A stretch of DNA of 48,497 nt from Candidatus Pelethousia gallinarum. GTDB taxonomy: Bacteria > Bacillota > Clostridia > Christensenellales > CAG-138. The notes beneath the pieces are model-generated. The model saw only the letters and a program-made list of their open reading frames with translations. It made no database searches and was not told the origin of the DNA. Below are positions 2,511 to 18,818 of this stretch, piece by piece. Location of the stretch: the NCBI GenBank assembly GCA_018711995.1, contig DVHO01000030.1, positions 1 through 48,497 of the forward strand, given 5' to 3'. Position 1 is the stretch's first letter; each line of letters opens with the position of its first letter. Position numbers and translations under genes: made by a program.

Positions 2511-3170
2511 ATGGCAACGATCGACAAAATGGAACAACAACTCAGGCCGCCGACCATCGGACTAAAACCCTATGAACCCAAGGTAATTCCCCTGATCACC
2601 GGCGAAGATATGTTGGTGCGGGAAATCACCCGGGATGAGGTCCCGCTCATTTTGGAAACCATCGAGCCCCTTATGAAGCAGCCCAAGGACTTCTACGACA
2701 TCGTGGCGGCCCGTATCTATGCGGAGCTGCTGGGCATGTACCGCTATCGGGTACAGGATGAATATTTCTTCGTAGGCGCCATCGACGGCGAGATCGCCGG
2801 TATCGTCAACGGCCGCCTGGTCAATGAAAAGATCGGCATGAGCTATCACACCATGACCCTGCGCCGCGGTTTGCGGGTAGGCGCCCAGCTGTTTGCCGCT
2901 AAGATGGAATATCACTTCGACTTCATGAACCAGGACGAGGTCTGGATCGTGGCGGAGAGCCCCAACGGCTTCAAGCGTTGGATGATCGAGTACGAGCTGG
3001 AATCCCGGCCTGAGTGCCCCCACGAGCTGGGCGGCGTACCCACCTATGTGCTCACCCGGGCCCTGTGGGAGAAACATAAGGCCAACAAGAACGTGGGCAT
3101 CCGTCCTGCGTTTGAGGATGTTATCAAGGCAAACGAAGTGCTGCGCAAGCCCCCGAAGATCAGCGTCTAA
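2511..3170 (+). CDS. Hypothetical protein; possible acyltransferase (GNAT-like) fold, family not recognised
   Basis: 219-aa ORF with AAGGAGG at 2496-2502, 8 nt before the ATG. It is the first gene of the plus-strand operon. There is only a weak by-eye GNAT-like core (GAIDGEIAGIVNG...LRRGLRVGAQLF). Confidence 0.55.
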   Translation: MATIDKMEQQLRPPTIGLKPYEPKVIPLITGEDMLVREITRDEVPLILETIEPLMKQPKDFYDIVAARIYAELLGMYRYRVQDEYFFVGAIDGEIAGIVNGRLVNEKIGMSYHTMTLRRGLRVGAQLFAAKMEYHFDFMNQDEVWIVAESPNGFKRWMIEYELESRPECPHELGGVPTYVLTRALWEKHKANKNVGIRPAFEDVIKANEVLRKPPKISV

Positions 3171-3194: not shown

Positions 3195-4391
3195 ATGCGT
3201 CAGGTAGGAATCGTTGGCGTAGGGCATACCAAATTCGGCAAGCATAACGGCACCTTCTTGGAAATGATCAGCGAGGCCGCCCTGCAGGCCATGGACGATG
3301 CCGGCGCCAAAACCGGCGATAATAACGTCATCGACCAGGTATTTGTAGCCAGCATGGGCGCCGGCATGATCAACCGGATTAGCGGCTCCGCCTCTGCCCT
3401 GGTAGATACCCTGGATATCCGCCCCGCCATGGCGGAGTGCATTGAGAACGGCCCCGCCTCCGGCGCGTCCGGCATCAAGCTGGGCTATATGGCCATCGCT
3501 TCCGGCATGTGCGACTGCGTGCTGGTGGTAGGCGGCGAGCAGATGCGGGTGGTAAGCGGCTGGGAAGCCACGGACTTTGTGGCCACCATGCTCCATCCGG
3601 AAGCAGAATATAAATACGGCGCGACCTTGCCCTCCTTCGCGGGCATGTTCACCCGCCTGTGCATGGAGAAATACGGCGTTGAGAGCAGGGACCTGTCCAT
3701 CATCTCCGTAAAGAACCATGAAAACGCCATGCACAATCCCTGCGCCCATATCCACCGCAGGGCGGTGCTGGAGCGCATCACCAACCCGGCTTACATCAAC
3801 GCCACCAACCCCATCGTGGCGGACCCCCTGCGCCAGTTCGATATGTGCCCGGTGAGCGACGGCGCCGCCGCGGTGCTGCTGGTGGCCAAGGATAAGCAGG
3901 AAGAGCTGGGCTTTGGCGACAAGAAGTTCATCCGGATCGCCGGTATTTCCAGCGCGACCGATACCCACGTGGTGGCTAACCGCGCGGTACCCACGGACCT
4001 GTTGGCTGTGCGCACCGCTGCCCAAAAGGCCTACAAGATGGCGGGTATGGGCCCCGAGGATATCGACGTGGCGGAGCTGCATGACGCCTTCCTGATCCTG
4101 GAGATCGTGGAGAGCGAGGAAGTGGGCTTCTTCAAGCGGGGCGAAGGCCATATCGCCGCCCGCAACGGCGAAACCCGCATCGGCGGCAAAATGCCCATCA
4201 ACCCCTCCGGCGGCTTGAAGGCCAAGGGCCATCCCCTGGGCGCCACGGGCGTATCCCAGGTGGTGGAGCTGGTCCGGCAGCTGCGGGGCGAGGCGGACGG
4301 CCGCCAGGTGGAAGGCGCCAAGACGGGCCTGGCCGTCAACTTCGGCGGCTTTGGCAACAACGTGGTCGCCACCATTGTGACGACGGACTAA
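3195..4391 (+). CDS. Thiolase-fold protein (SCP2/archaeal-type thiolase-like), apparently lacking the canonical catalytic cysteines
   Basis: 398 aa. Thiolase-fold signatures are present: VLVVGGEQM and NPSGGLKAKGHPLGATGVSQVVELVRQLRGEA. The expected N-x-C-A-(S/T)-G nucleophile segment reads ENGPASGASG. The SCP2-thiolase HDCF motif reads HDAF. Confidence 0.8.
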   Translation: MRQVGIVGVGHTKFGKHNGTFLEMISEAALQAMDDAGAKTGDNNVIDQVFVASMGAGMINRISGSASALVDTLDIRPAMAECIENGPASGASGIKLGYMAIASGMCDCVLVVGGEQMRVVSGWEATDFVATMLHPEAEYKYGATLPSFAGMFTRLCMEKYGVESRDLSIISVKNHENAMHNPCAHIHRRAVLERITNPAYINATNPIVADPLRQFDMCPVSDGAAAVLLVAKDKQEELGFGDKKFIRIAGISSATDTHVVANRAVPTDLLAVRTAAQKAYKMAGMGPEDIDVAELHDAFLILEIVESEEVGFFKRGEGHIAARNGETRIGGKMPINPSGGLKAKGHPLGATGVSQVVELVRQLRGEADGRQVEGAKTGLAVNFGGFGNNVVATIVTTD

Positions 4392-4403
4392 GGAGGCAAG
4401 GAT

Positions 4404-4745
4404 ATGGAACAACTCTACGCATATAAATGCAATAAGTGCGGCAAGCTGCACCATCCCCATTACATTGTCTGCCAGAATCCGGCGTGCGAAAGCAGGGAGT
4501 TTACCCCCGAAGTGCTGGAGGGCAAGTGCAAGCTCCTTACCTGGACCCGGGTTTACAACCTGCCCGAAGGCTATATGAAGCCCTGGCTGAATTTCGGCAT
4601 CGTGCAGTTTGAAAACGGCGTGACCGCCATGGGTCAGATCGGCTTTGACGATATCGAAAACGGCATGGAGCTGGTCTCCACCGTGGATGTGGTCAAAGAG
4701 GGCGTGGGCCAGGATCAATACGGTTTCGTGTTCGTCAAACCATAA
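4404..4745 (+). CDS. DUF35-type zinc-ribbon/OB-fold protein (thiolase partner subunit)
   Basis: 113 aa. It has an N-terminal four-Cys ribbon (CNKCGKLHHPHYIVCQNPAC) followed by an OB-fold-like C-terminus. It sits 12 nt after the thiolase-like gene, the arrangement typical of thiolase/DUF35 pairs. Confidence 0.75.
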   Translation: MEQLYAYKCNKCGKLHHPHYIVCQNPACESREFTPEVLEGKCKLLTWTRVYNLPEGYMKPWLNFGIVQFENGVTAMGQIGFDDIENGMELVSTVDVVKEGVGQDQYGFVFVKP

Positions 4746-4872
4746 GGCGTGGAAGGGATACCCGCCTGGCAGGCGCCGGGCGGGGATTCTGCAAGGGCGG
4801 GGCTGAAAACCGCCCCCGCAGTCCAAAGCGGGCGGCCCGATCCGGCCGCCCCACCATACTGGAGGGATTTGT

Positions 4873-6432
4873 TTGATAAAACTTGAAGTTCGGAAAAATG
4901 CGTATTACGATTCCGTGACCCTGATGCTCATCTCCAAGGACGTTAAGAAGCTGGAAGGCATCGAAGAAGCCCTGGTGGGCATGGGAACGGAATTGAATCG
5001 GGAAATCGCGGCCAATCTGGGCCTGGACGCCCCGGGGTTCGAGGCGGTGGGGCCCAATGACTTTTTTGTGGCCGTCCGCTGCGGGGACGAGGCGGCGTTT
5101 ACCAACGCCATAGAAACCGTGGATACCCTCATCAATAAAAAGGCGGACAGCGAGGCCGCGGCCTACACCCCCCCCACCCTGGAGGGTGCGCTGAAGATGG
5201 ACCCCAATCTGAACATGGCGGTCATCTCCGTGCCGGGCAAGTTCGCGGCAGGGGTCGCCCAGGAGTGCCTGGATAAGAACATCCACGTGATGCTCTTTAG
5301 CGACAACGTGACCGTGGACGAAGAACGGGAACTGAAAACCTTTGCGGCGGAACGTGGTTTGCTGGTCATGGGCCCGGATTGCGGCACGGCCATCATCAAC
5401 CACGTGCCTTTGGCGTTTGCCAACGTGGTAAAGCCGGGGGGCATCGGCATCGTAGCGGCTTCCGGCACGGGCACCCAGGAGGTATCCTCCCTGGTGGACC
5501 AGCTGGGGGGCGGCGTATCCCAGGTGATCGGCACCGGCGGCCGGGACCTGAAGAAAGAGATCGGCGGCATCATGATGACCATGGGCCTGGAGTCCCTCAT
5601 CGACGACGAGGCCACCAAGGTGATCGTGTTGATCTCCAAGCCCCCGGCCAAGGAGATCGCCACCCAGATCCTTACGCTGGCCACCAAGACGGATAAGCCC
5701 GTGGTGGTGTGCTTCATCGGCGGCGACCCGGCGGAGATCCGTTCCTTTGGCCTACATGCGGCCCTGTCCCTGGAGGATGCGGCCTATAAGGCGGTGGCCC
5801 TATTGAAGGGCGAGGAGGTCAAGGACTTCGTCAGCTTCACCATGGGCCAGGCGGAGGCCGAGGCCCTGGCTAAGGAGGAGGCCGGCAAAATGGCCCCCAG
5901 CCAGCGGTATGTGCGGGGCCTGTTCACCGGCGGCACCCTTTGCGACGAGGCCATGAAGCTCCTGAAGGAAGGCCTGGGCCATATTTATTCCAACATCCCC
6001 TTGGACCCCGCGGATCTCATCGAGGAGGCCCGTACCGCCAAGAGCCGGGAGAACACCTTCCTGGATTTCGGCGACGATGCCTTTACCGTGGGCCGGCCCC
6101 ATCCCATGATCGACCCCTCCCTGCGGGCTGAGCGGGTGATCACCGAAGGGGACGATCCCGAGACGGCCGTCATCTTTACGGATTGCGTCATCGGCTATGG
6201 CTCCCATCCGGACCCGGCTGAAGACCTGTCCGAGGCCATCCGCAAGGCAAAGGCCAACGCCCAGCAGGCGGGACGGCACATTACGGCGGTGGTCTCCGTG
6301 TGCGGCACGGAAGGCGATCCCCAGGGGCTCACAGCCACCCGGGAAAAGCTGCGGGCAGCCGGCGCGCTGGTATTCCCCTCCAATGCCCAGGCAACCCGTT
6401 TCGTGCAGCTGCTGCTGGGGAATCTTGCGTAG
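4873..6432 (+). CDS. fdrA: FdrA-family protein (succinyl-CoA-synthetase-alpha-like, acyl-CoA synthetase FdrA)
   Basis: 519 aa with a TTG start and GGAGGG at 4861-4866. The N-terminus MIKLEVRKNAYYDSVTLMLISKDV matches the FdrA N-terminal pattern. It also has SCS-alpha-like MGPDCGTAII and IVAASGTGTQEV. Confidence 0.8.
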   Translation: MIKLEVRKNAYYDSVTLMLISKDVKKLEGIEEALVGMGTELNREIAANLGLDAPGFEAVGPNDFFVAVRCGDEAAFTNAIETVDTLINKKADSEAAAYTPPTLEGALKMDPNLNMAVISVPGKFAAGVAQECLDKNIHVMLFSDNVTVDEERELKTFAAERGLLVMGPDCGTAIINHVPLAFANVVKPGGIGIVAASGTGTQEVSSLVDQLGGGVSQVIGTGGRDLKKEIGGIMMTMGLESLIDDEATKVIVLISKPPAKEIATQILTLATKTDKPVVVCFIGGDPAEIRSFGLHAALSLEDAAYKAVALLKGEEVKDFVSFTMGQAEAEALAKEEAGKMAPSQRYVRGLFTGGTLCDEAMKLLKEGLGHIYSNIPLDPADLIEEARTAKSRENTFLDFGDDAFTVGRPHPMIDPSLRAERVITEGDDPETAVIFTDCVIGYGSHPDPAEDLSEAIRKAKANAQQAGRHITAVVSVCGTEGDPQGLTATREKLRAAGALVFPSNAQATRFVQLLLGNLA

Positions 6433-6441
6433 GAGGGAATT

Positions 6442-7869
6442 ATGGCGAAATTGAACGAATTATACCAAAAAGAGCTCCATGTCGTAAACTTTGGCGTGGA
6501 AGCCTTCTATCAGGACCTCCTATCCCAGAACAAAAAGGCGGTACATGTCAACTGGAAGCCCGCCGCGGGAGGCGATCCCCGGCTGGCGGCCATGCTCCGC
6601 AAGCTCCACAGCGGGGAGCTGGGTGAAAAGATCGCCGCGGCCAACGCCGAGGCCCTCACCCGGATCCTCAACGCCCAGCCTACCCTGATCGGCCTGGGCA
6701 CCGCAGGCGAGCTGCTGCCCGGCATGACCAAGAAAACCATCCTCCATGCGGGCCCGCCCATTACCTGGGACAGGATGAGCGGCCCGGTGCGGGGCGCCGT
6801 CATGGGCGGCCTGATCTACGAGGGATTGGCCAAGGACCTGAAAGAAGCGGAAGAGTTGGCGGCCTCCGGGGAGATCACCTTCGACCCCTGCCACCATCAT
6901 AACGCGGTAGGCCCCATGGCGGGCGTGGTGACCTATTCCATGCCTGTATGGCGGATGAAGAACAAGGCCTTTGGCAACGAAGCCTATTGTACCTTTAACG
7001 AGGGCTTGGGCAAGGTGCTGCGCTTCGGCGCCTGCGACCAGGAGGTCATCGACCGGCTGAACTGGCTGGCTTCCGGCCTGTATCCGGTGCTGCGGGCAGC
7101 CATGGAGCGGATCGGGGAGATCGACATCAAGACCATGATCGCCCAGATCCTCCAGATGGGCGACGAGGGCCACAACCGGAATAAGGCGGGCACCTCCCTG
7201 CTGTTCCGGGAGCTGACCTTGGGCGTGCTGGAGACGGACTTCTCCAACCAGGAGAAGGAGGCGGCCCTGCGCTTCCTCAACAACAACGACCACACCTTCC
7301 TGAACATCTCCATGCCGGCCTGTAAGTGCACCATGGACGCCATCCAGGGGATCCCCTATTCCACGGTGGTGTCCACCATGTGCCGCAACGGCACGGACTT
7401 CGGCATCCGGATCGCGGGCCTTGGGGAAAAGCAGTGGTTCACTGCCCCGGCAGAGGCGGTGGACGGCCTTTACTTCCCGGGCTACACCGAAGCGGACGCC
7501 AACCCGGACCTGGGAGACAGCTGCATCACAGAGACCACCGGCATCGGCGGCTTCTGCATGGCGGCGGCCCCGGCCATCGTCCAGTTTGTGGGCGGCAAGG
7601 TCCAGGACGCCATCAACTATTCCCTGGAGATGTACGAGATCACCACCGGCGAAGGCTCCGCATACCGGATCCCCGCCCTGGACTTCCGGGGCAGCGCCAC
7701 GGGCATCGACCTGCTGAAGGTGATCGAGACCGGCATCCGGCCCATTATCAATACGGGCATCGCCCACAAGGACTATGGCGTGGGCCAGATCGGCGCCGGC
7801 TTGGTGCGGCCCCCGGCCGCCTGCTTCACCCAGGCCCTGGAGGCCTGCGCAAAGGCCTGGCTGGAATAG
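6442..7869 (+). CDS. DUF1116 protein (YlbE / AllG-like)
   Basis: 475 aa, 9 nt after fdrA. VNFGVEAFYQDLLSQNKKAVHVNWKPAAGGDPRLAAML resembles the YlbE-family N-terminus. It has the same fdrA-ylbE adjacency as in E. coli. Confidence 0.75.
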   Translation: MAKLNELYQKELHVVNFGVEAFYQDLLSQNKKAVHVNWKPAAGGDPRLAAMLRKLHSGELGEKIAAANAEALTRILNAQPTLIGLGTAGELLPGMTKKTILHAGPPITWDRMSGPVRGAVMGGLIYEGLAKDLKEAEELAASGEITFDPCHHHNAVGPMAGVVTYSMPVWRMKNKAFGNEAYCTFNEGLGKVLRFGACDQEVIDRLNWLASGLYPVLRAAMERIGEIDIKTMIAQILQMGDEGHNRNKAGTSLLFRELTLGVLETDFSNQEKEAALRFLNNNDHTFLNISMPACKCTMDAIQGIPYSTVVSTMCRNGTDFGIRIAGLGEKQWFTAPAEAVDGLYFPGYTEADANPDLGDSCITETTGIGGFCMAAAPAIVQFVGGKVQDAINYSLEMYEITTGEGSAYRIPALDFRGSATGIDLLKVIETGIRPIINTGIAHKDYGVGQIGAGLVRPPAACFTQALEACAKAWLE

Positions 7870-8000: not shown

Positions 8001-8801
8001 ATGAGCAAATGGTCTGATATTAAAATGTACGAACTCTCCATCCCCATTGGCATCAATACGCCCCCCTGGCCCACCTATGAGCCCTTGCAGATGAAATTCT
8101 TCAAGCGGCTGGCGCCCAACGGGGCCAACGGCCAGCTGATGACCCACTCCAACCACGTGGGCACCCACTTGGACGGCCCCCTGCATTTTGACACCGCAGG
8201 CCGGGATATGGCCTCCCTGGAGCTGACCAAGCTGTGCGCCCCCGGCGTGGTGGTAGACCTTTCCGACCAGGCTATGGACTGGGGCATTTATACCCCGGAA
8301 GATATTGAAAAGCGGGTAGAGGTGAAGGAAGGCGATATCCTGATCATCAACACCGGCTACCATAAGTATGGCTGGGATAGCCCCGAGGCGGATGAGCGCC
8401 GCTACATGCTCCGCCACCCCGGCCCCTGCCTGGACTTCGTCCGCTGGGTGCGGGAAAAGAAGCTGCGCTGGATTGGCGTGGACTGCGGCTCCGCAGACCA
8501 CCCCATGAACACCAAGATCCGCGACTGGGAACCCATGGAGGCCGAAAAGTGCGACGCCGTGTTCAAAGAGCGCTATGGTAAGGGCCTCAACGACATCTAT
8601 CCCTGGCCGGACCATTACCAGGCCATGCATATCGAGCTGTTCTGCAAGCCCTATGAAGCCATCCATGCCGAGTGCTTGGGCGGCCAGATCGACGAGCTCT
8701 CCAATAAGCGGGTCGTTATCGGCTGCTTCCCCTGGAAGCTGGTGGAAGGCGAAAGCTGTATCTCCAGAATCGTGGCCTTCGACGGCTTTGAAGACGTGTA
8801 A
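8001..8801 (+). CDS. Cyclase-family hydrolase (kynurenine formamidase / isatin hydrolase fold)
   Basis: 266 aa with AAGGAGG upstream. The family metal-binding motif HxGTHxDxPxH is present as HVGTHLDGPLHF. Confidence 0.8.
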   Translation: MSKWSDIKMYELSIPIGINTPPWPTYEPLQMKFFKRLAPNGANGQLMTHSNHVGTHLDGPLHFDTAGRDMASLELTKLCAPGVVVDLSDQAMDWGIYTPEDIEKRVEVKEGDILIINTGYHKYGWDSPEADERRYMLRHPGPCLDFVRWVREKKLRWIGVDCGSADHPMNTKIRDWEPMEAEKCDAVFKERYGKGLNDIYPWPDHYQAMHIELFCKPYEAIHAECLGGQIDELSNKRVVIGCFPWKLVEGESCISRIVAFDGFEDV

Positions 8802-9300: not shown

Positions 9301-9651
9301 ATGCGGCAGGCATTGGAACGGTGTTTTGACGCCATCGGCAGCAGCGAACGATATCGGAATATGTATTTCCAGCCGTTAAATGAAATTTACGCCTTGCCCC
9401 ATTATTTTATCTTGGCGGGGCGAGAACCAGAACAAATTGTGAAGCATGCGGAGCTGGCGGACGCGGAAGGGTTTATGCATAAACATCAGCAGGTTTGCCA
9501 GCAGTTGGCCCGGCGGCTGAGCCGGGAGGGGTTAACGAAGTTTCAAGCGGCGTGCCGGCAGGGCCAGCCTGCGGCAGCCGACAGGACCCAGGACCGGGCG
9601 GGGCGCGGCGGCGCCGCCCCAGCCACAAATCAGGAGGAGGAGGACGTATGA
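9301..9651 (+). CDS. Hypothetical small protein (uncertain)
   Basis: 116-aa ORF. Its TGA overlaps the ATG of the downstream FAD-subunit gene (ATGA at 9648-9651), which suggests translational coupling. No recognisable family, and the C-terminus is low-complexity. Confidence 0.3.
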   Translation: MRQALERCFDAIGSSERYRNMYFQPLNEIYALPHYFILAGREPEQIVKHAELADAEGFMHKHQQVCQQLARRLSREGLTKFQAACRQGQPAAADRTQDRAGRGGAAPATNQEEEDV

Positions 9652-10481
9652 GAGCATTTGAGTATTTTGCGCCTGGGACCGTAGGGGAGGCGGCAAAATT
9701 CCTTCGTGAAAACGAGGGGAAGGCCGTGGTCCTCAACGGCGGTACGGATGTGGTGATCCAGCTGCGGGACCGGCTGATCAACCCGGCATACGTGGTGGAC
9801 ATCAAACGCATCCCAGGATTGAACGAACTGCGGTTTTCCAAGGAAGAGGGCCTGCATATCGGCGCTTGCGTGAACATGAACCGCTTGGGCGGGGATGAGA
9901 ACGTACGCACATATTACCCCTTCCTGGCGGAAGCCGCCCTATCGGTGGGCTCCAAGCAGGTGCGCAACCGGGCGACCTGCGCCGGCAACCTGATCAACGC
10001 TTCCCCCTTGGCGGACACCTCTACGCCCCTGCTGTGCCTGGACGCGGTGTTGGAAGTGGAAGGCCCGGACGGCAAGCGGGAGATCCCCATCAATGAGTTT
10101 TTCGTATTCGTCCGCAAGACCACCTTGCAAAAGGATGAGATCGTCACCGGGATCCGGGTCCCCTATTATGAGGGCGTCCAGGGTATTTTCACCAAGGTAT
10201 CCCGGCGCAATAAGGTGGACCTATCCACCGTGTGCAGCACGGTGATGAAGCATGAAGGCAAATACCGGGCGGCCTTTGGCTCTGTGGCGCCGACCCCCCG
10301 GCGGCTGCCCCAAACGGAAGCCTGCCTGAACGAAGGGCCGTTGGATGAAGCGCGGATCGACCGGGCGGTGGAGCTGGCCCTCAGCGAGGTATCCCCCATC
10401 GACGACGTGCGGGCAAGCAAGCAGTACAGGCTGGACGTGGTGGCCATGGCCCTGCGCCGGAGCCTGGAAAGCCTGGGCTAA
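9648..10481 (+). CDS. Molybdenum hydroxylase (xanthine dehydrogenase family), FAD-binding medium subunit (CoxM/XdhB-like)
   Basis: The start was chosen at ATG 9648, with AGGAGGAGG immediately upstream; the track ORF starts at 9495. MRAFEYFAPGTVGEAAKFL...VLNGGTDVVIQLR is the typical FAD-binding PCMH-type N-terminus. Confidence 0.85.
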   Translation: MRAFEYFAPGTVGEAAKFLRENEGKAVVLNGGTDVVIQLRDRLINPAYVVDIKRIPGLNELRFSKEEGLHIGACVNMNRLGGDENVRTYYPFLAEAALSVGSKQVRNRATCAGNLINASPLADTSTPLLCLDAVLEVEGPDGKREIPINEFFVFVRKTTLQKDEIVTGIRVPYYEGVQGIFTKVSRRNKVDLSTVCSTVMKHEGKYRAAFGSVAPTPRRLPQTEACLNEGPLDEARIDRAVELALSEVSPIDDVRASKQYRLDVVAMALRRSLESLG

Positions 10482-10494
10482 GGAGGGACGCGAG

Positions 10495-10980
10495 ATGAAA
10501 TATCATGTTCATTTTTACGTAAATGGCGATGCCTATGATTTGGATGTGCCCGCCAACAAAACCATGCTGGATGTGTTGCGGGACGAATTGTGCCTTACCG
10601 GTACCAAGGAGGGCTGCGGCGCCGGTGAGTGCGGCGCGTGCACGGTGATCGTGGACGATGTGCCCCTCAACGCTTGCCTGGTGCTGGCGCCGGAGCTGGA
10701 CGGGGTGCATATCACCACGGTGGAAGGCCTGTCCGACGGGCCGAAGCTCTCGCCGCTGCAGCAGAGCTTCATCAAGCATGGCGCCCTGCAGTGCGGGTTC
10801 TGCACGCCTGGCTTCCTCATGTCCGCCACGGCGCTGCTCAATGAAAATCCCCATCCCACCCGGGAGGAGATCATCGATAGCATCAGCGGGAACCTGTGCC
10901 GTTGTACGGGCTATAAGCGGATCGTAGAAGCCATTGAGGAGATCGCAGCCCGCGGCCAGGCGGCCGATACACAGGAATAG
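10495..10980 (+). CDS. Molybdenum hydroxylase, [2Fe-2S] small subunit (CoxS/XdhC-type iron-sulfur subunit)
   Basis: Start at ATG 10495 with AGGAGGG upstream. Both cluster motifs are present: CGAGECGACTV, and CGFCTPG...CRCTGY. Confidence 0.9.
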   Translation: MKYHVHFYVNGDAYDLDVPANKTMLDVLRDELCLTGTKEGCGAGECGACTVIVDDVPLNACLVLAPELDGVHITTVEGLSDGPKLSPLQQSFIKHGALQCGFCTPGFLMSATALLNENPHPTREEIIDSISGNLCRCTGYKRIVEAIEEIAARGQAADTQE

Positions 10981-10996
10981 AAAGGAGGCGCCCCGT

Positions 10997-13309
10997 ATGA
11001 AATATGTAGGCCAAAGCATAGAGCGTGTGGACGCGATCCGCAAGGTAACCGGGCAGGCGCAGTATGTGGGCGACTTCCATATGCCCCGCATGCTATACGC
11101 CCAGGTGAAGCGGAGCCCGTACCCCCATGCGAAGATCATCAGCATCGACGTATCCAAAGCCGAGAAGCTTCCCGGCGTGCGGGCCGTGATCACCGGCGAA
11201 TGGTATACCAAGCGTTGCGGCCTGTACCTGGAGGATAAAAACTTCCTGGCCAACAAAACGGTGAAGTATCAGGGCGAAGCCGTGGCGGCAGTTGCCGCAG
11301 AAACCGCCGAAATCGCCCAGGAAGCCTGCGATTTGATCGAGGTGGTCTATGAGGAGCTGCCGGCGGTTACCAACGCCATAGACGGCATGAAGCCGGATGC
11401 GCCCTTGATCCATCCCGACCTGCATACCTACAAAGTCGCACCGATTTTCTTCCCAAAACCCCACACAAATATCTCCCATCACTACAAATTGCGCAAAGGA
11501 GATGTTGACAAAGCCTTCAAAGAGTGCGATTATGTAGCAGAGCACACATATTACATTCCCCATGTACAACACGTCCCCTTGGAACCCCATGTAGCCATTG
11601 CGCAATATGAATACGACGGCAAGCTGACCGTTTGGGCCAGCACCCAGTCCCCCTACGCGGTGCGGCAAGCCCTGAGCGTAGCCTTTGAGATCCCCCTGAA
11701 TAAGCTGCGGGTTATTTCCCCGTACGTGGGCGGCGGCTTCGGCTCAAAAGCAGGCACCACCATCGAGGGCATCATCATCCCCCTGGCCATGCGCTGCAAG
11801 GGCCGGCCGGTGAAGCTCCAGTACAGCCGGGAGGACGAATTCCAGAATTCCTACGTACGCCAGGGCCTCCATTGCAAGATCAAGACCGGCGTCAAGAAGG
11901 ACGGCCGCATCCACGCGGTGAAGAACGAATTCGTCTGGGATGGCGGCGCCTATACAGAATACGGCGTCAACATCGTAAAGGCAGGCGGCTTCGCCTCCGC
12001 AGGCCCCTACAACATCGACAACGTGTGGACGGATAGCTACTGCGTCTACACCAACCACCCCGTGGGCGGCCCGTACCGGGGCTTCGGCATGTGCGAGATC
12101 CATTTCGCCATCGAGCAGAACATCGACATCGTGGCCAAGGAGATCGGCATGGATCCGGTGGAGATGCGCCGGATCAACGGCCTGCGGGTAGGGGATAAGA
12201 CCTGCATGGGCGAGACCATGGTGGTATCCGGGTACCATGAGTGCCTGGAGGAAGTGGTCAAGGATATCGGCTACGGGGAGAAGAGCGAGAGCCCCAACCC
12301 CCGGAAGGTACGGGGCAAGGGCATCGCGGCCGGCTGGAAATCCCCTTCCATGCCCACCAACGCAGGTTCCGCGGCCATCATCCGGATGAACGAGGACGGT
12401 ACCTTCTTCCTGATGACCAGCGGCCAGGAGATCGGCCAAGGTTCGGATACGGCCCTGACCCAGATCGCCGCCGAGACCCTGGATGTGGACCCCAAGCTGA
12501 TCACCATCCGCACCGGCGACACGGACCATACCCCCTATGAATGGCAGACCGTGGCCAGCCGTACCACCTATTGCGCAGGCAACGCGGTGAAGCTGGCCTG
12601 CGAGGACCTGAAGAAGAAGATCCTGGAGCTGGCCCAGATCAAGCTGGGGGCCTATAAGCGGGATCTGGAATTCAAGGACGGGTATGTGGTGCATAAGATC
12701 TACACCGACCGGAAGGTCCCCCTGTCGGAATTCGCATTGGGCCTGGCGTTCCCGGACGGCTCCGGCGTAGGCGGCCCCGCCATTGGCGTAGGTACCTTCA
12801 CCCTGGAGAACAACATCAACTACGACAAGGAAACCGGCATCGGCGAACATCCTGTGGCATTCTGGACCATCGGCGTGAACGGCGCGGAGGTAGAGGTGGA
12901 TCTGGACACCGGCGAGGTGAAGGTGCTTCGGATGGTATCCTGCTTCGACGCAGGTAAGGTCATCAACCCGGAAACCTTCTGCGCCCAGTCCGAAGGCGCC
13001 ATGGTGCAGGCCATGGGCACGGCCCTGTTCGAGGAACTGATCCTCAAGAACGGCCACATCCTCAATAAGAACTTCGTAGACTATAAGATCCCCACGGCGG
13101 ACGATATGCCAGAATTGACCGTTAAATACATAGAGCATGCGGAGCCCACCGGCCCCTATGGAGCCCGCGGCGTGGGCGAGCCGCTTATGGTACCCGGCGC
13201 ACCGGCTATTGCAAACGCCATTTACGACGCCATCGGCGTGCGATTCAACCGTATGCCAATTACAGCTGAGGAGGTGTTGAAGGCTCTAAAAGAAAAGGCG
13301 ACTGAATAA
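10997..13309 (+). CDS. Molybdenum hydroxylase, molybdopterin-binding large subunit
   Basis: Start at ATG 10997 with AAAGGAGG upstream, giving ~770 aa. The N-terminus VGQSIERVDAIRKVTGQAQYVGD and internal GGGFGSK are typical of aldehyde oxidase/xanthine dehydrogenase a/b hammerhead plus MoCo domains. Confidence 0.9.
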   Translation: MKYVGQSIERVDAIRKVTGQAQYVGDFHMPRMLYAQVKRSPYPHAKIISIDVSKAEKLPGVRAVITGEWYTKRCGLYLEDKNFLANKTVKYQGEAVAAVAAETAEIAQEACDLIEVVYEELPAVTNAIDGMKPDAPLIHPDLHTYKVAPIFFPKPHTNISHHYKLRKGDVDKAFKECDYVAEHTYYIPHVQHVPLEPHVAIAQYEYDGKLTVWASTQSPYAVRQALSVAFEIPLNKLRVISPYVGGGFGSKAGTTIEGIIIPLAMRCKGRPVKLQYSREDEFQNSYVRQGLHCKIKTGVKKDGRIHAVKNEFVWDGGAYTEYGVNIVKAGGFASAGPYNIDNVWTDSYCVYTNHPVGGPYRGFGMCEIHFAIEQNIDIVAKEIGMDPVEMRRINGLRVGDKTCMGETMVVSGYHECLEEVVKDIGYGEKSESPNPRKVRGKGIAAGWKSPSMPTNAGSAAIIRMNEDGTFFLMTSGQEIGQGSDTALTQIAAETLDVDPKLITIRTGDTDHTPYEWQTVASRTTYCAGNAVKLACEDLKKKILELAQIKLGAYKRDLEFKDGYVVHKIYTDRKVPLSEFALGLAFPDGSGVGGPAIGVGTFTLENNINYDKETGIGEHPVAFWTIGVNGAEVEVDLDTGEVKVLRMVSCFDAGKVINPETFCAQSEGAMVQAMGTALFEELILKNGHILNKNFVDYKIPTADDMPELTVKYIEHAEPTGPYGARGVGEPLMVPGAPAIANAIYDAIGVRFNRMPITAEEVLKALKEKATE

Positions 13310-13504: not shown

Positions 13505-14695
13505 ATGTTTGGCGCAACGGTGCTGGTCCCCATCCTTACAGGCTTGAGTATCTCCGTGACGCTGCTGTGCGCAGGCGTGGGCACATTGCTCTTCCACTTC
13601 CTGGCAAAGGGGAAAGTACCTGCATTCCTGGGATCTTCCTTCGCATTCCTTGGCGGATTTGCGGTGGTAGCCCCCATGGTGGACGGTATGCCCAACAAGG
13701 AAATGCTGCCCTATGCATGCGGCGGTATCGTGATTGCCGGTTTGCTGTACGTGGTGGTAGCGGCGCTGATCAAGGTGCTTGGTATCAAACGGGTCATGCG
13801 CTTGTTCCCGCCGGTGGTTACCGGTCCTATCATCATCCTGATCGACTTGATCCTGGCGCCCAGCGCCATCACCAACTGCCAGGCCAACTGGCTGCTGGCG
13901 GTCATCACCATGCTGCTGATCATCGGCTGCAACATCTGGGGCAAGGGCATGATCAAGATCATCCCCATCCTGATCGGTATCGTAGGCGCCTACATCATCG
14001 CCTTGATCGTCGGCTGGGTAGACTATAGCGGCCTGGCAACTGCAGCCGCCGTAGGCATCCCGCCCTTCACCATTGCCAAATTCAGCGGCAGCGCGATCCT
14101 CACCATGGCGCCCATCGCCTTGGCTACCATGATGGAGCACGTGGGCGATATCTCCGCCATCAGCGCGACCTGCGGCAGGAACTTCATCGCCAACCCCGGC
14201 CTGCATCGCACCCTGTTGGGCGACGGCTTGGCCACCTCCCTGGCTGGCTTGGTGGGCGGCCCCGCCAACACCACCTACGGCGAGAACACCGGCGTGCTGG
14301 CACTCTCCAAGGTATACGATCCCAAGGTCATCCAGATCGCGGCGGTCGTGGCCGTCATCCTCAGCTTCAGCCCCTGGTTTGACGCCCTGGTGAACACCAT
14401 CCCCACCGCCATCATCGGCGGCGCATCCTTCGTGCTCTACGGCATGATCTCCGCCATCGGCGTACGGAACGTGGTAGAAAATCAGGTAGACCTGACCAAG
14501 TCCCGTAACCTGATCATCGCGGCGGTCATCCTGGTATCCGGCTTGGGCTTCAACTCCGTAGGCGGCATCCAGATCGGCATCGTGAACCTGTCCGGCTTGG
14601 CCACCGCTGCCATCCTGGGCATCTTGCTCAATGCCATTCTGCCCGGCAAGGACTATGAGTTCCAGATGGAAGAGCCTGAGGACGCAAAGGCTTAA
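13505..14695 (+). CDS. NCS2-family nucleobase permease (uracil/xanthine permease-like); N-terminus interrupted by an in-frame TAG at 13490-13492 (possible pseudogene)
   Basis: MFGATVLVPILTG and GENTGVLALSKVYDP are NCS2 (UraA/PyrP-like) signatures. The same frame upstream reads TTG(13403)-SKEKIDYSQGIYDAPGQLGWGRTIVLGI-TAG-HVFA-MFGATV. The stop therefore sits where the family has the conserved Gln of LQH(L/V)FAMFGATV. Confidence 0.8.
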   Translation: MFGATVLVPILTGLSISVTLLCAGVGTLLFHFLAKGKVPAFLGSSFAFLGGFAVVAPMVDGMPNKEMLPYACGGIVIAGLLYVVVAALIKVLGIKRVMRLFPPVVTGPIIILIDLILAPSAITNCQANWLLAVITMLLIIGCNIWGKGMIKIIPILIGIVGAYIIALIVGWVDYSGLATAAAVGIPPFTIAKFSGSAILTMAPIALATMMEHVGDISAISATCGRNFIANPGLHRTLLGDGLATSLAGLVGGPANTTYGENTGVLALSKVYDPKVIQIAAVVAVILSFSPWFDALVNTIPTAIIGGASFVLYGMISAIGVRNVVENQVDLTKSRNLIIAAVILVSGLGFNSVGGIQIGIVNLSGLATAAILGILLNAILPGKDYEFQMEEPEDAKA

Positions 14696-14842: not shown

Positions 14843-15769
14843 ATGCCTAGTATCTGCATAGCAGGAACAGCCGCAGCCGCCATGCTGCAACAGGGACCCA
14901 TGGAAGGACGGGTACATAGCGTGTTCCGCCGGGTGCTGAATGTGGAAATGCCGGCATTGGCAGGGGCGGTGGATAACCTATATAGTTTGGGAAGGCAGGA
15001 TGTGCCGCCATCGCCTGCCATGCTGGTGACAGACCTACGGCGGGCATTTTTCGGGGTATCACCTGGGGATGTGATCCGGATCCATTCGGATTTAATCGAA
15101 GTGGGGGAATACCGCATCGCCATTCCGGAAGCGTTACCCCAGTGGGGACAGAGCCCCCATGTATGCGGCGACCTGGCGGATCGGGAAACCCTAGAAGGCT
15201 ATTTTTCCAATATTGCCGCCGTGCTGCTGCAACGGGTGCCATGGCCGCAACCCAGCGCATTGCTGCTTTTGGCAGGCCGGCAACCCCGGCGGGACGATCC
15301 CTATGGCAAGGCCTTCCAGGCCGGGGTAGAGGGATTGGAGGCATGGGGCGATAGAGCCTTGGAGGCTGCCTTGCCTGCGGCCCCGGTGCAGGAAACGGCA
15401 CGGCTGTTGGGCTTGGGCGCAGGACTGACCCCCTCGGGCGACGATTATATTTCCGGGGTACTGATCGGCCTTGGGCAATTTCCCAAAGCGGCAGGTTTGC
15501 TGGCCAGCTTGATCCAGGCGGTGCAGGCCAATCTGGCCCGTACCAACCGCTTGAGCCAGCACTTTTTATCCTATGCCATGGCCGGCTATTGGGGCCGCCT
15601 GGAAGATCAGCTGGTCGCCGCATTGTGCGCGGCAGACCGGCCGGGTTATCTGGCTGCGGCGGAAGCTTTAGCCGCATACGGTTCCTCCTCCGGAATAGAT
15701 GAAATGCTGGGCCTGCGCACCGGCCTGCGCCTGGGATTGATGGCTTCCAATGGGGAGAGGCTTTGCTAA
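14843..15769 (+). CDS. DUF2877 protein (YlbF / AllH-like)
   Basis: 308 aa with GAGGAGG upstream. It carries the family-typical GLGAGLTPSGDDYISGVLIGL motif. Confidence 0.7.
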   Translation: MPSICIAGTAAAAMLQQGPMEGRVHSVFRRVLNVEMPALAGAVDNLYSLGRQDVPPSPAMLVTDLRRAFFGVSPGDVIRIHSDLIEVGEYRIAIPEALPQWGQSPHVCGDLADRETLEGYFSNIAAVLLQRVPWPQPSALLLLAGRQPRRDDPYGKAFQAGVEGLEAWGDRALEAALPAAPVQETARLLGLGAGLTPSGDDYISGVLIGLGQFPKAAGLLASLIQAVQANLARTNRLSQHFLSYAMAGYWGRLEDQLVAALCAADRPGYLAAAEALAAYGSSSGIDEMLGLRTGLRLGLMASNGERLC

Positions 15770-15869: not shown

Positions 15870-16062
15870 ATGATTGGCTCGGGAGAGACCGGGAACCCGG
15901 CGCCGAAGGGGCAAGCAGAAACTCTCAGGCAAAAGGATCGAGCCAGGACGACACTCCGAAAAAGTACGGCAGGACGCTTTTCTTGCCATACGCCGAAGGT
16001 GCAACCGCCTCAGCCCGCCTGAAAAGGCGGCAGGGGTGTGGAATCTCTCAGGTGCAAAAACG
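15870..16062 (+). promoter_or_regulatory. Tandem glycine riboswitch (two aptamers)
   Basis: Aptamer 1: P1 ggctcg...cgagcc (15876-15944), containing GGGAGAG...CGCCGAAGGGGCAA...CUCUCAGGCAAAAGGA. Aptamer 2: ACGCCGAAGGUGCAA...CUCUCAGGUGCAAAAACGGAG. It sits directly upstream of gcvT, the classic context. Confidence 0.85.
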
Positions 16063-16064
16063 GA

Positions 16065-16098
16065 GGCGCAAATTTCCAAGGGGAAGTTTGCGCCTTTT
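16065..16098 (+). terminator. Riboswitch expression-platform terminator
   Basis: 13-bp stem ggcgcaaatttcc/aagg/ggaagtttgcgcc (one G-U pair) followed by TTTT. Its 5' arm abuts the 3' end of aptamer 2, consistent with a glycine-ON switch. Confidence 0.75.
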
Positions 16099-16169
16099 CT
16101 CGTACCCTAAAAACCAGCACATCCAACCCCTTGCAGAATCAACAATCTATCGGGAGGAGCAACAAAACA

Positions 16170-18818
16170 ATGCAGGAATGCAAGCGCACACAACTTTACG
16201 ATGTCCATGTGGCGGCAGGGGCCAGCATGGTGGACTTTGGCGGTTGGGAAATGCCCATTCAGTATCCCACCGGCATTGTGGCGGAACACCTGTATACCCG
16301 GCATGTATGCAGCTTATTCGACGTATCCCACATGGGCCGGCTGCTGATCCAGGGGCCGGAGCGGGTGGCCTTCTTACAGCATGTGCTCACCAGCAACGTG
16401 ATGGCCCTGGACCTGAACAAGGCCCAGTATTGCATCATCCCCAACGAAAACGGCGGGGCTGTGGACGACGCCTATCTGTACAAATTCGAGGAGGATTGGT
16501 TCCTGCTGGTGGTGAACGCCGCCAATAAGGACAAGGACCTGGCCCATCTGGGGGCGCTGGTCAAGGATTTCGACTGCACCATCACGGATATTTCCCCGGA
16601 CTATGCTTCCATCGCCATCCAGGGGCCCAAGAGCAAGGAGCTGCTGCTACAAATGTCCGGCGGCCAGGCCATTACCGAGCCCATGAAGAACGCCCTGAAT
16701 ACCCTGGAGCTGGAAGGAAAGACCGTGCGGGTTGCCAAGACCGGCTATACCGGGGAACCGCTGGGGTATGAGCTGTTCATCGACAGCGCCAACGCCGCCT
16801 GGCTGTGGGACCGGCTGGTGGAGCTGGGGGCCAAGCCTGCGGGCTTGGGCGCCCGGGATACCCTGCGGCTGGAGGCGGGGCTGCCCCTTTACGGCCATGA
16901 GATGGGCCAGGCCCCCGATGGCAGCGAGATCCCCATTTTCGCTGTGCCTCTGGCCAAGTTTGCCGTGAGCTTCTCGGAGCAAAAGGGCAATTATGTGGGC
17001 CGGGCGGCCCTGGAAAAGCAGGCGGAGGCCAACAAGGCCATCCTGAATCGGGATTTCCGGGACCTGTCCGTGCTGCCCAAGCGCATCCAGCCCATCACCC
17101 TGCTGGATCGGGGCGTGATGCGGGCCGGCATGGAGGTTTACAGAGGGGACGTGTGCATCGGCTGGGTCACCAGCGGCACCATGGTGCCCTATTACCAGGC
17201 GGAGGGCGAGGGCTTGGCCACGGTGATCCTAGAGGAGACCGCCAAGCGTTCCATCGGCCTGGCCTACATTGCCAGCGACGTGCTCACGGACGATATGGTA
17301 GAGATCGATGTGCGGGGCAAGCGGCTCAAGGCTGTGGTGCCTGCCTGCCATATGCGGGCGGATGCGCCGCCTTTTGCCCGGCCCATCCTGTACCGGCCGG
17401 AGGCGGCCCCCGCCCAGGCGGACGCCGCGCCCCGGTATGAAAAGGCCGTCAACCTGATCCGGGAGGCCACGGAAAACCACGACTGGCGGCAGAACCGGTG
17501 CATCAACCTGATCCCCTCGGAAAATAGCGCCAGCCGGGCCGTACAGCTGCTGTGCGCCTCGGACCCTGCCTTCCGCTATGCGGAGCATAAAAAGGTAAAA
17601 TCCTTCTACGACGCGGATATCTTCTATTACCAGGGCACCAAGTTCATCGACCGGGTGGAGCAGCTGCTGGTGGAGCAGATGAAGGAATACTTCGGCTGCA
17701 CCGAGGTGGAGACCCGGGTCATCAGCGGCCAGATGTCCAATATGGCCACCTTCTCCGCCCTGATGGATTGGAAGAACCGGCTGGATCGCAAGCACGATCC
17801 CAAGCGCCTGGGCTATGTGATGAACAACCACATCATCAAGGGCGGCCACCTTTCCGCCCAACCCATGGGCGCCCTGCGGGACTATATCGCCATCGACCCG
17901 GTGACCGAACGCCATGCCATCGTGAACTTCCCGGTGTGCAAGGATAACATTTATAAGATCGACGTGGAGGAGACCAAAAAGCTCATCGACCAGTATAAGC
18001 CCGAGCTGATCATCTTCGGCAAGAGCATGGTGCTGCACCGGGAGCCGGTGGCCGCCATCCGCCAGTTTGTGGATCAGCAGGGGATCCCCACCACCATCAT
18101 GTACGATATGGCCCATGTGCTGGGCCTGGTGGGCCCCTACTTCCAGCAGCCCTTCCAGGAGGGCGCGGAGATCGTCACCGGGTCCACCCATAAGACTTTC
18201 TTTGGGCCCCAGCGTGGCGTCATTGCGGTGAACTACCAGAAAGAGGAATTGAAATACGGTCTCTGGGAGACCATCGAACGCCGGGCCTTCCCAGGCAGCG
18301 TATCCAACCATCACCTGGGCACCCAGTTGGGCCTGCTGATGGCTGCCTATGAGATGAACCAGTTCAAGGACGAATACCAGAAGAACATCGTGAACAACGC
18401 CAAGAGCTTCGCCAAGAGCCTCAAGGCCCACGGCCTGGAGGTGGCGGGGGATCCGGCCAACGATTACACCGAGACCCATCAGGTGATCGTGTCCGTGGGC
18501 TACGGGGAAGGCCCCGAGGTAGCGGAGCGGCTGGAGCAAAACAACATCATCGTCAACTACCAGGCCACCCCCGAGGAGGAGGGTTTCACGGCCTCCGGCG
18601 CCTTGCGGATGGGTGTGAGCGAAATGACCCGCTTCGGCTTTGGCCCGGCGGAATTCGACCGGCTGGCCGGCATCATGGCGGACTGCATCCTACGGTGCAA
18701 GGACGTGACCCAAGAGGTGGAGGCCTTCCGCAGCCAGTATACCCAGATGCATTACTGCTTCGACCAGCAGCAGATGCTGGAGGCCCTGGAGGGCTTTTCG
18801 GAAAAGATTGGCCTGTAA
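16170..18818 (+). CDS. gcvT: Fusion protein: glycine-cleavage aminomethyltransferase (T protein) + serine hydroxymethyltransferase-like PLP domain
   Basis: Start at ATG 16170 with GGGAGGAG at 16152-16159; the track ORF starts inside the riboswitch at 16038. Residues ~1-405 are GcvT-like (LYDVHVAAGASMVDFGGWEMPIQY, KTGYTGEPLGYELF). There is an Ala/Pro linker. Residues ~423-882 are SHMT-like (NLIPSENSASRAV, GGHLSAQP, GSTHKTFFGPQRG with the PLP lysine). Confidence 0.85.
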   Translation: MQECKRTQLYDVHVAAGASMVDFGGWEMPIQYPTGIVAEHLYTRHVCSLFDVSHMGRLLIQGPERVAFLQHVLTSNVMALDLNKAQYCIIPNENGGAVDDAYLYKFEEDWFLLVVNAANKDKDLAHLGALVKDFDCTITDISPDYASIAIQGPKSKELLLQMSGGQAITEPMKNALNTLELEGKTVRVAKTGYTGEPLGYELFIDSANAAWLWDRLVELGAKPAGLGARDTLRLEAGLPLYGHEMGQAPDGSEIPIFAVPLAKFAVSFSEQKGNYVGRAALEKQAEANKAILNRDFRDLSVLPKRIQPITLLDRGVMRAGMEVYRGDVCIGWVTSGTMVPYYQAEGEGLATVILEETAKRSIGLAYIASDVLTDDMVEIDVRGKRLKAVVPACHMRADAPPFARPILYRPEAAPAQADAAPRYEKAVNLIREATENHDWRQNRCINLIPSENSASRAVQLLCASDPAFRYAEHKKVKSFYDADIFYYQGTKFIDRVEQLLVEQMKEYFGCTEVETRVISGQMSNMATFSALMDWKNRLDRKHDPKRLGYVMNNHIIKGGHLSAQPMGALRDYIAIDPVTERHAIVNFPVCKDNIYKIDVEETKKLIDQYKPELIIFGKSMVLHREPVAAIRQFVDQQGIPTTIMYDMAHVLGLVGPYFQQPFQEGAEIVTGSTHKTFFGPQRGVIAVNYQKEELKYGLWETIERRAFPGSVSNHHLGTQLGLLMAAYEMNQFKDEYQKNIVNNAKSFAKSLKAHGLEVAGDPANDYTETHQVIVSVGYGEGPEVAERLEQNNIIVNYQATPEEEGFTASGALRMGVSEMTRFGFGPAEFDRLAGIMADCILRCKDVTQEVEAFRSQYTQMHYCFDQQQMLEALEGFSEKIGL

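Follow-up and report, generated by a model that had tools for sequence, protein, structure and literature searches.

In the 48,497-nt stretch of Candidatus Pelethousia gallinarum contig DVHO01000030.1 analysed here (the window), three neighbouring genes encode a thiolase-fold protein (P0001), a DUF35 protein (P0002) and a GNAT-fold protein (P0003). P0001 is, by alignment and conservation, no ordinary thiolase, both catalytic cysteines having been lost. Judged from its recurrence across genomes, the gene trio is a conserved, widespread three-gene unit in anaerobes, whose function we infer. We tentatively favour a role for P0001 as a non-covalent, enolate-stabilising subunit that would act after carbamoyl-phosphate release in a catabolic module. 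Within this proposal, the thiolase-like/DUF35 pair is probably a catalytically active, non-thiolytic part of the module, and malonyl-type decarboxylation is a possible but doubtful identity for its reaction.

The three genes are closely packed on the plus strand, and an AGGAGG-type ribosome-binding site precedes each. P0003 (219 aa; 2511-3170, +) is the first gene of the module and is followed by P0001 (398 aa; 3195-4391, +) and P0002 (113 aa; 4404-4745, +). Pfam, NCBIfam and PDB alignments, AlphaFold2 (AF2) modelling with Foldseek searches, and conservation all place P0001 as a Cys-less protein with the fold of SCP2/archaeal-type thiolases. Its sequence matches both halves of the two-domain thiolase fold, Pfam Thiolase_N (E 7e-21) and Thiolase_C_1 (E 3e-44), as well as NCBIfam "thiolase domain-containing protein" models, the latter all under their curated cut-offs. 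The closest relatives in both sequence and fold are archaeal acetoacetyl-CoA thiolases (M. thermolithotrophicus, 6esq/6et9; P. furiosus PFC_04095, 7yvy). Among all PDB sequences, the best phmmer matches are 7yvy (263 bits), 4yzo (232 bits) and 6esq (218 bits), and BbsB, SCP2 thiolases, Ltp2 (6ok1, 99.6 bits) and PhlC rank lower. An AF2 model built from 30 family sequences (predicted template modelling (TM) score 0.85, mean predicted local distance difference test (pLDDT) 79) superposes on 7yvy and 6esq with TM scores of 0.85-0.87 at 37-39% identity.

The original prediction, made by eye, had placed a Pro at the position of the nucleophilic Cys and had read the HDCF motif of SCP2 thiolases as HDAF. 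The first point is borne out by formal phmmer and hidden Markov model alignment and by superposition of the AF2 model on archaeal thiolases. The phmmer alignments to 7yvy and 6esq contain no gaps near the active site and lay E-N-G-P87-A-S-G over E-A-A-C-A-S-G, and in the model Pro87 (codon 3453-3455, +) sits between strand 79-83 and helix 89-102, at the thiolase nucleophile elbow. The second point also stands: HDCF of 6esq corresponds to H296-D-A298-F (4080-4091, +), in which His and Asp are retained and the acid/base Cys has become Ala. The GHP motif, G345-H346-P347 (4227-4235, +), is kept. Across a family alignment of 80 sequences, comprising P0001 and 79 homologues from one-genome-per-species contigs of public genomes, NGPASG, HDAF and GHP are invariant (80/80). 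P0001 and its family therefore lack both the nucleophilic and the acid/base Cys of a catalytic SCP2/archaeal-type thiolase and retain both histidines of oxyanion hole 1, that of HDxF (H296) and that of GHP (H346).

We then compared the family with the 130 nearest full-length 50%-cluster representatives of P0001 (among P0125-P0274), in which the nucleophile column holds Cys in 84, another residue in 45 and a gap in one. HDAF occurs in 22 of the 84 Cys-bearing relatives as well, including the solved P. furiosus thiolase 7yvy; Ala at the acid/base site is thus not unusual in itself. What is decisive is that the nucleophile has been lost. The family and its Cys-bearing relatives have in common H296, D297, F299, N336, G339, G340, G345, H346, P347, G384, G385, D222 and G223, and three loops are kept as well (NxSGG, SDG and the C-terminal GG loop). 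A further 36 positions, a good number of which are polar, do not vary within the family yet are rare in canonical relatives; K95, D127, H134, Y139, N205, H258, D268, H319, N388 and N389 are examples. This conservation pattern argues for a remodelled pocket rather than a decayed one.

Two other cysteines were considered as substitute nucleophiles. Cys82, in AMAECIENG, had been named beforehand as a residue that a proper alignment might bring to the nucleophile position; it is ruled out, being Thr in 68 of 80 members, and the position itself is occupied by Pro87. The sole family-invariant Cys is C218. Of the 84 Cys-bearing relatives, 40 have Cys in this column and 35 have Ser. Because this column is Cys or Ser where the normal nucleophile is still present, C218 looks ancestral and is unlikely to be newly recruited.

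The family stands apart from its relatives. In a scan of 1.84 billion cluster representatives, similarity falls sharply, with one representative at 56% identity and the next at 45%; identity within the family is 60-98% across phyla. The 45 non-Cys representatives carry Ser (20), Pro (9), Asp (6), Gly (5) or other residues (5) at the nucleophile position, and a single one of them retains the HDCF Cys. His296 is kept in every Ser-type (20/20), Pro-type (9/9) and Asp-type (6/6) representative, and His346 in 19/20, 9/9 and 6/6, respectively. In a FastTree phylogeny the family groups with the other Pro types, and the Pro and Ser types together form one clade of 41 with a support of 0.998. The archaeal protein ST0096 of S. 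tokodaii (4yzo) belongs to this same Cys-less sister group as a Ser type, with Ser at the nucleophile position and HDMA in place of HDCF; our literature search found no functional study of it or of 7yvy. Since the Pro and Ser clade is well supported and the histidines are kept, the tree and alignment indicate that the cysteine loss is old and stable, with the remaining catalytic apparatus retained. The ancestry of the thiolase-fold subunit lies among acetoacetyl-CoA thiolases of the archaeal type.

A Pro-type thiolase-like protein (NGPASG/HDAF) is also encoded on a methanogen-like contig (L081:7563-9015), followed by a 94-aa open reading frame (ORF) without a Pfam match and neighboured by DUF1890, DUF1894, DUF169 and a trp operon. 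The Pro variant therefore occurs in Archaea too. The contexts of the Pro-type relatives P0127 (methanogen-like contig, 94-aa downstream ORF) and P0139 (short contig) were uninformative.

The gene that follows P0001 had been predicted to encode a four-Cys DUF35 protein, and profile searches and conservation agree. P0002 matches PF12172 (zf-ChsH2, E 1.3e-5), and the four cysteines of the rubredoxin-like DUF35 zinc ribbon, C9, C12, C23 and C28 (4428-4487, +), are invariant in 30/30 sequences. A weak match to the NCBIfam BbsA model covers residues 4-79, and the C-terminal part presumably adopts an oligonucleotide/oligosaccharide-binding (OB) fold, although no OB-domain model in Pfam matched it. 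P0002 is a stand-alone 113-aa protein and not part of a MaoC-type hydratase subunit. In all loci that extend far enough, the DUF35 gene directly follows the thiolase-like one.

This arrangement resembles the archaeal thiolase complex, which shares with the family the HDxF His, the GHP motif and a small zinc-ribbon DUF35 partner encoded alongside. In the archaeal complex DUF35 bridges two CoA-using subunits, and the same three-protein logic may hold for the module. The differences lie in the Pro that replaces Cys and in the third partner, which is a 219-aa GNAT-fold protein rather than HMG-CoA synthase; no HMG-CoA synthase gene was found, either in the window or across about 150 related loci. 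The setting differs as well, since the family occurs in a catabolic cluster of ureide/pyrimidine type, whereas the archaeal complex serves mevalonate synthesis. None of the described thiolase/DUF35 systems that we found in the literature has a GNAT-fold third partner.

P0003 is a highly divergent GNAT-fold protein, and its identity came from fold search alone. No family in Pfam or NCBIfam matched it, and a match to MnmA in a profile search of PDB sequences is a chance hit (E 1.4). The AF2 model of P0003 has a pLDDT of 89, and all of its strong Foldseek matches in the PDB are GNAT acyltransferases with a probability of 1.0. VIA-align superposes it on PA3270 (8gxj_A) over 160 residues with a Z of 14.4 and a root-mean-square deviation of 2.6 Å, and several CoA complexes align similarly. 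By these models the GNAT fold of P0003 is secure. Among 27 homologous sequences, 68 columns are invariant, including the blocks GMSYHT, FAAKMEYH, VAESP and HELGGVP. The segment R119-G-L-R-V-G-A125 resembles the Q/R-x-x-G-x-G/A pyrophosphate-binding motif of GNAT proteins, except that its central Gly is replaced by an Arg that does not vary.

When the complex was predicted from three chains, the GNAT-fold protein, taken as the partner, reached an interaction prediction score from aligned errors (ipSAE) of 0.41 (runs 0.36, 0.41 and 0.46), and the best of three controls scored 0.00. The runs share at least 90% of their contacts, and the partner has a pLDDT of at least 85. In calibration, 58 of the 80 solved complexes passed the ipSAE mark, as did 2 of the 110 mismatched pairs; scores of 0.60 or below took in only 7 of the 80 solved complexes, yet both of the passing mismatches, and the calibration is rough for a three-chain job. 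The prediction thus lends weak support to the GNAT-fold protein joining the complex.

About 150 loci, spread over at least six phyla, have the three genes in the order GNAT-fold, thiolase-like, DUF35; of the loci examined, 80 were found through the thiolase-like protein and 75 more through a distant homologue of the GNAT-fold protein. Hosts include Bacillota, Coriobacteriia, Spirochaetota, Verrucomicrobia, Kiritimatiellia, Desulfovibrionaceae and Caldiserica. With few exceptions, the GNAT-fold gene directly precedes the thiolase-like gene. Common neighbours of the module are AllH, FdrA, AllG and a cyclase-fold hydrolase, often joined by a Mo-hydroxylase, a permease and carbamate kinase. The family is present in at least 552 species genomes, with human-gut genera such as Flavonifractor and Lawsonibacter and relatives of Christensenella among them, and its cultured hosts include Clostridium magnum DSM 2767, C. 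ragsdalei P11, C. bowmanii, Anaerocolumna aminovalerica, Flavonifractor hominis and Lawsonibacter hominis.

A second context was found in three genomes of two phyla, two from Coriobacteriia (L061:10084-12984 and L084) and one from Desulfovibrionaceae (L147:3798-6917). Here the module is accompanied by a DUF485/ActP-MctC-type monocarboxylate symporter and a C-N hydrolase of the nitrilase branch, with a PucR regulator in addition in L061. The hydrolase, 411 aa in length, is Nit6803-like (232 bits) and is extended at its N-terminus by 66 aa. Queries for FdrA and for the cyclase-fold hydrolase drew a blank in each of these genomes (3/3), as did the query for AllG in the two searched (2/2); the same queries recovered FdrA, AllG and the cyclase elsewhere in a Verrucomicrobia genome with a stand-alone module. 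The module, recurring as it does in this second context, is therefore separable and can receive its input through either of two upstream routes. A small carboxylate with an amide or nitrile-derived group fits as its input.

The pair can also occur on its own. Seven loci (L052, L063, L072, L074, L075, L077 and L078) carry a Pro-type thiolase-like/DUF35 pair with no adjoining GNAT-fold gene, and neither that gene nor AllG was found in the five draft genomes searched (5/5), while the GNAT query recovered its target in 5/5 control genomes. Genes can be missed in draft genomes, but the result argues for the pair being more than a scaffold for the GNAT-fold enzyme. Around these seven pairs only the DUF35 gene is common, AIM24, cupin, amidohydrolase and fumarase genes giving no pattern, and the context of L079 (NfnAB-like genes, serine hydroxymethyltransferase (SHMT), an aminotransferase and glutamate dehydrogenase) gave no clear link. 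Both the GNAT-fold partner and the separability of the module are additions to the original prediction, which had missed them.

The active site suggests how such a protein could work. In thiolases the backbone NH of the nucleophilic Cys provides half of the second oxyanion hole, which stabilises the acyl-enzyme, and proline has no backbone NH. With neither a Cys thiol nor this NH at position 87, acyl transfer would be doubly disabled and an acyl-enzyme impossible. The histidine-lined first oxyanion hole polarises the thioester carbonyl and stabilises an enolate. Since this hole is intact and the nucleophile is gone, non-covalent enolate chemistry is most likely, rather than thiolysis. Precedent exists in the KS-Q/chain-length-factor (CLF) subunits of polyketide synthases, which have Gln at the active-site Cys and decarboxylate malonyl thioesters through a retained oxyanion hole; GNAT-fold malonyl-CoA decarboxylases provide a further precedent for decarboxylation. 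TbSLP, the SCP2-thiolase-like protein of T. brucei, decarboxylates malonyl-CoA slowly and has the motif YDCF where SCP2 thiolases read HDCF (PMC12329534). Its structure with malonyl-CoA (5ab7) is among the structural matches of the P0001 model. We draw on KS-Q/CLF and TbSLP, with their altered thiolase motifs and their common use of the retained oxyanion hole, as proteins that work alike, without assigning P0001 to either group. Of the KS-Q/CLF signature, P0001 has the two oxyanion-hole histidines and lacks the Gln; Pro and HDAF stand in the family where Gln or YDCF stands in these proteins, which belong to different subfamilies and have no DUF35 or GNAT partner.

By analogy with characterised enzymes, the cluster most likely serves breakdown of a uracil-like nitrogen ring, with the module finishing it; the uracil-like assignment follows from the gene content, the permease score and the likeness to AllFGH. 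E. coli AllFGH acts on oxalurate, an acyl-urea, and phosphorolyses it to oxamate and carbamoyl phosphate (PMC11326118). Homologues of all three subunits of this oxamate carbamoyltransferase, and of the kinase AllK, are encoded in the module's cluster, where they would probably release carbamoyl phosphate from an acyl-urea. The E. coli allFGH genes differ in having no thiolase-like, DUF35 or GNAT-fold genes alongside, and no further processing of the amide product oxamate is reported there. In the route that we propose, a uracil-like base would be imported and then hydroxylated by the Mo enzyme, and the cyclase-fold hydrolase would open the hydroxylated ring. The AllFGH homologues would phosphorolyse the resulting acyl-urea to carbamoyl phosphate, from which carbamate kinase would make ATP, leaving a small malonamate- or malonate-type product, an amide or a dicarboxylate. 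The GNAT-fold subunit could transfer the acyl group onto CoA, and the Cys-less thiolase-fold subunit could decarboxylate the malonyl-type thioester to an acetyl thioester in the manner of KS-Q/CLF. DUF35 would clamp the thiolase-fold subunit and shape the CoA site, as in solved complexes.

A bolder version, which we regard as speculative and quite unlikely, makes the complex an ATP-independent, energy-conserving channel, in which an amide acyl group (for example that of malonamate) would pass to CoA, pulled by decarboxylation of the malonyl thioester bound in the adjacent thiolase-fold pocket, through a shared CoA site. Such coupling of an uphill step to a downhill one would mirror the archaeal thiolase/HMG-CoA synthase/DUF35 complex. 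If true, the anaerobe would gain acetyl-CoA and a second ATP from the pyrimidine carbon skeleton, beyond the ATP from carbamoyl phosphate.

Several points weigh against the enolate-stabilising proposal and the route around it. The substrate, cofactor and activity of all members, the chemistry included, are inferred, and the pyrimidine/barbiturate route is built on which genes are present and on a permease whose score falls short of the curated cut-off. The glycine-cleavage genes downstream of the cluster would fit a purine-to-glycine route instead. The CoA-activating step for malonamate or malonate is only putative; transfer from amide to thioester by a GNAT-fold protein is uphill on its own, and we know of no precedent for it. 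The prediction supports entry of the GNAT-fold protein into the complex weakly. No malonyl-CoA decarboxylase or CurA-type GNAT is found in the top 50 Foldseek and VIA-align matches of P0003, a result that we do not hold against the proposal. In addition, KS-Q has Gln where the family has Pro at the Cys position, and the pLDDT of the AF2 model drops below 50 at 121-143, 204-218 and 257-261, loops that hold several of the family-specific residues.

Other thiolase/DUF35 chemistries were weighed against the same evidence. The original prediction had likened the pair to the Ltp2-ChsH2(DUF35) aldolase and suggested aldol-type or other non-thiolytic chemistry on a CoA ester within a nitrogen-heterocycle cluster. 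Part of this stands, in that P0001 is not an ordinary thiolase, its DUF35 partner is confirmed and the cluster is conserved; the Ltp2-type retro-aldol reaction does not. A retro-aldolase or other C-C lyase of the Ltp2-ChsH2(DUF35) or Sal-Shy(DUF35) kind, with a hydroxyacyl-CoA as its substrate, would share with the pair a Cys-less SCP2-type thiolase fold, a DUF35 partner and non-thiolytic C-C chemistry, and Ltp2 is a detectable relative with a TM score of 0.77. In Ltp2 and Sal, however, the Tyr of the YDHF (Ltp2) or YDCY (Sal) motif is the catalytic base, and Sal also needs the motif Cys (PMC12329534), the second catalytic residue of Ltp2 being Tyr344; the family has an invariant His in place of the Tyr, and the Cys is Ala298 in P0001. 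With the motif Tyr missing, we rejected P0001 as an Ltp2/Sal-type aldolase. The archaeal thiolases are also much closer (263 bits to 7yvy against 99.6 to Ltp2). The DUF35 domains that work with Ltp2 and Sal are fused to a MaoC hydratase subunit, and these enzymes act on steroid CoA esters (PMC12329534), whereas the DUF35 of the module stands alone, and no MaoC hydratase or acyl-CoA dehydrogenase gene that could supply a beta-hydroxyacyl-CoA was found in the loci examined. We therefore consider C-C lyase chemistry of this kind improbable. Even less credence is due to a covalent acyl-transferring thiolase or Friedel-Crafts C-acyltransferase that would use another nucleophile, for example on a barbiturate-like active methylene. 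PhlACB (PpATase) and MucABC (SmaATase) are bacterial thiolase/HMGS/DUF35 derivatives with rewired catalytic residues, and fold and DUF35 partner are common to PhlC, MucB and the family, in which C218 is invariant. Yet PhlC and MucB keep the acetylated Cys88/Cys87 and have lost the HDxF His (PMC12960953), the reverse of the family, in which the His is kept and the Cys is gone. The third subunit of PhlACB and MucABC is HMGS-like and not GNAT-fold. Neither Cys82 nor C218 helps, Cys82 being Thr in most members and the C218 column being Cys or Ser also where relatives have a normal nucleophile, and Pro87 would remove the backbone NH of the oxyanion hole for an acyl intermediate.

Two further explanations concern the division of labour within the module. 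The pair might be a pseudoenzyme or scaffold that, without catalysis of its own, keeps the GNAT-fold enzyme or the AllFGH homologues assembled in active form or offers a CoA-binding surface, much as the inactive HMGS-like subunits PhlA of PhlACB and MucA of MucABC do not catalyse. The loss of both catalytic cysteines would suit such a role, as would binding of the GNAT-fold protein, which the complex prediction weakly supports (ipSAE 0.41; best control 0.00), and inactive assembly subunits are documented in thiolase/HMGS/DUF35 complexes (PMC12960953). A mere scaffold is nevertheless hard to reconcile with the invariance of His296, Asp297, His346 and the NxSGG, SDG and GG loops, with the 36 family-specific invariant positions, with the identity maintained between members across phyla, or with the five genomes in which the pair was found and the GNAT-fold gene and AllG were not; we judge it unlikely. 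Alternatively, the GNAT-fold subunit could itself be the decarboxylase, in the manner of malonyl-CoA decarboxylase (MCD) or the CurA loading GNAT, leaving CoA/acyl transfer or acceptor binding to the pair. GNAT decarboxylases use pairs of His with Ser or Thr, and the invariant blocks S111-Y112-H113-T114 and E133-Y134-H135 of P0003, whose GNAT fold is secure, offer such pairs. This assignment would leave unexplained the five genomes with a pair in which no GNAT-fold gene was found, and we judge it rather unlikely. MCD and CurA GNATs are not among the top structural matches, a result to which we give no weight here.

Thiolase/DUF35 scaffolds have been rewired for mevalonate synthesis, benzoylsuccinyl-CoA thiolysis, steroid retro-aldol cleavage and Friedel-Crafts acylation. 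The family described here represents the opposite route to that of PhlC and MucB and adds a GNAT-fold partner that no sequence model recognises. A search of the full-text literature found no description of the module or of an anaerobic barbiturate-type route, and the module seems to supply the last step, so far missing, of an anaerobic route for uracil-like bases that has yet to be described. Such a route, if true, would give candidate genes for reactions that now have none, and the cultured hosts make the module directly testable.

In the window, the module is embedded in a set of genes that match the common neighbours seen elsewhere. Upstream lie the C-terminal end of a carbamate kinase (2-253, +; AA_kinase match, with a full-length copy in the cluster of L050) and a PucR-family regulator (595-2223, -) that is divergent from the module. 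Downstream are an FdrA/AllF-like gene (4873-6432, +; NCBIfam FdrA, 485 bits), an AllG-like gene (6442-7869, +; Pfam AllG, E 1e-96) and a cyclase-fold, kynurenine-formamidase-like metal hydrolase (8001-8801, +; PF04199, E 9e-34, and PDB matches). These are followed by a molybdenum hydroxylase of the xanthine dehydrogenase (XDH) family with three subunits (FAD, 2Fe-2S and Moco; 9495-13309, +) and by an NCS2 permease (13505-14695, +) that scores highest against uracil permease (UraA 313, RutG 283 and PbuX 184 bits, all below curated cut-offs).

The AllH-like gene (DUF2877; 14843-15769, +; PF11392) is displaced. In relatives it usually lies between the DUF35 gene and fdrA, as in L014 and L050, and the window copy is about 10 kb downstream of this place. 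At the usual AllH site the window has a GC-rich DUF35-fdrA spacer of 128 nt (4746-4872) with the complementary runs GGCGCCGGGCGGGG ... CCGCCCCCGC. Directly downstream of the catabolic cluster, a GcvT aminomethyltransferase and an SHMT-like domain are joined in a single ORF (16038-18818), and GcvPA, GcvPB and Lpd then follow; the position of these glycine-cleavage genes could mean that glycine is a product, or be chance adjacency. In a Verrucomicrobia locus (L149:9512-10981), two tandem genes of the BURPS668_1122 toxin-deaminase family lie directly 3' of a stand-alone module.

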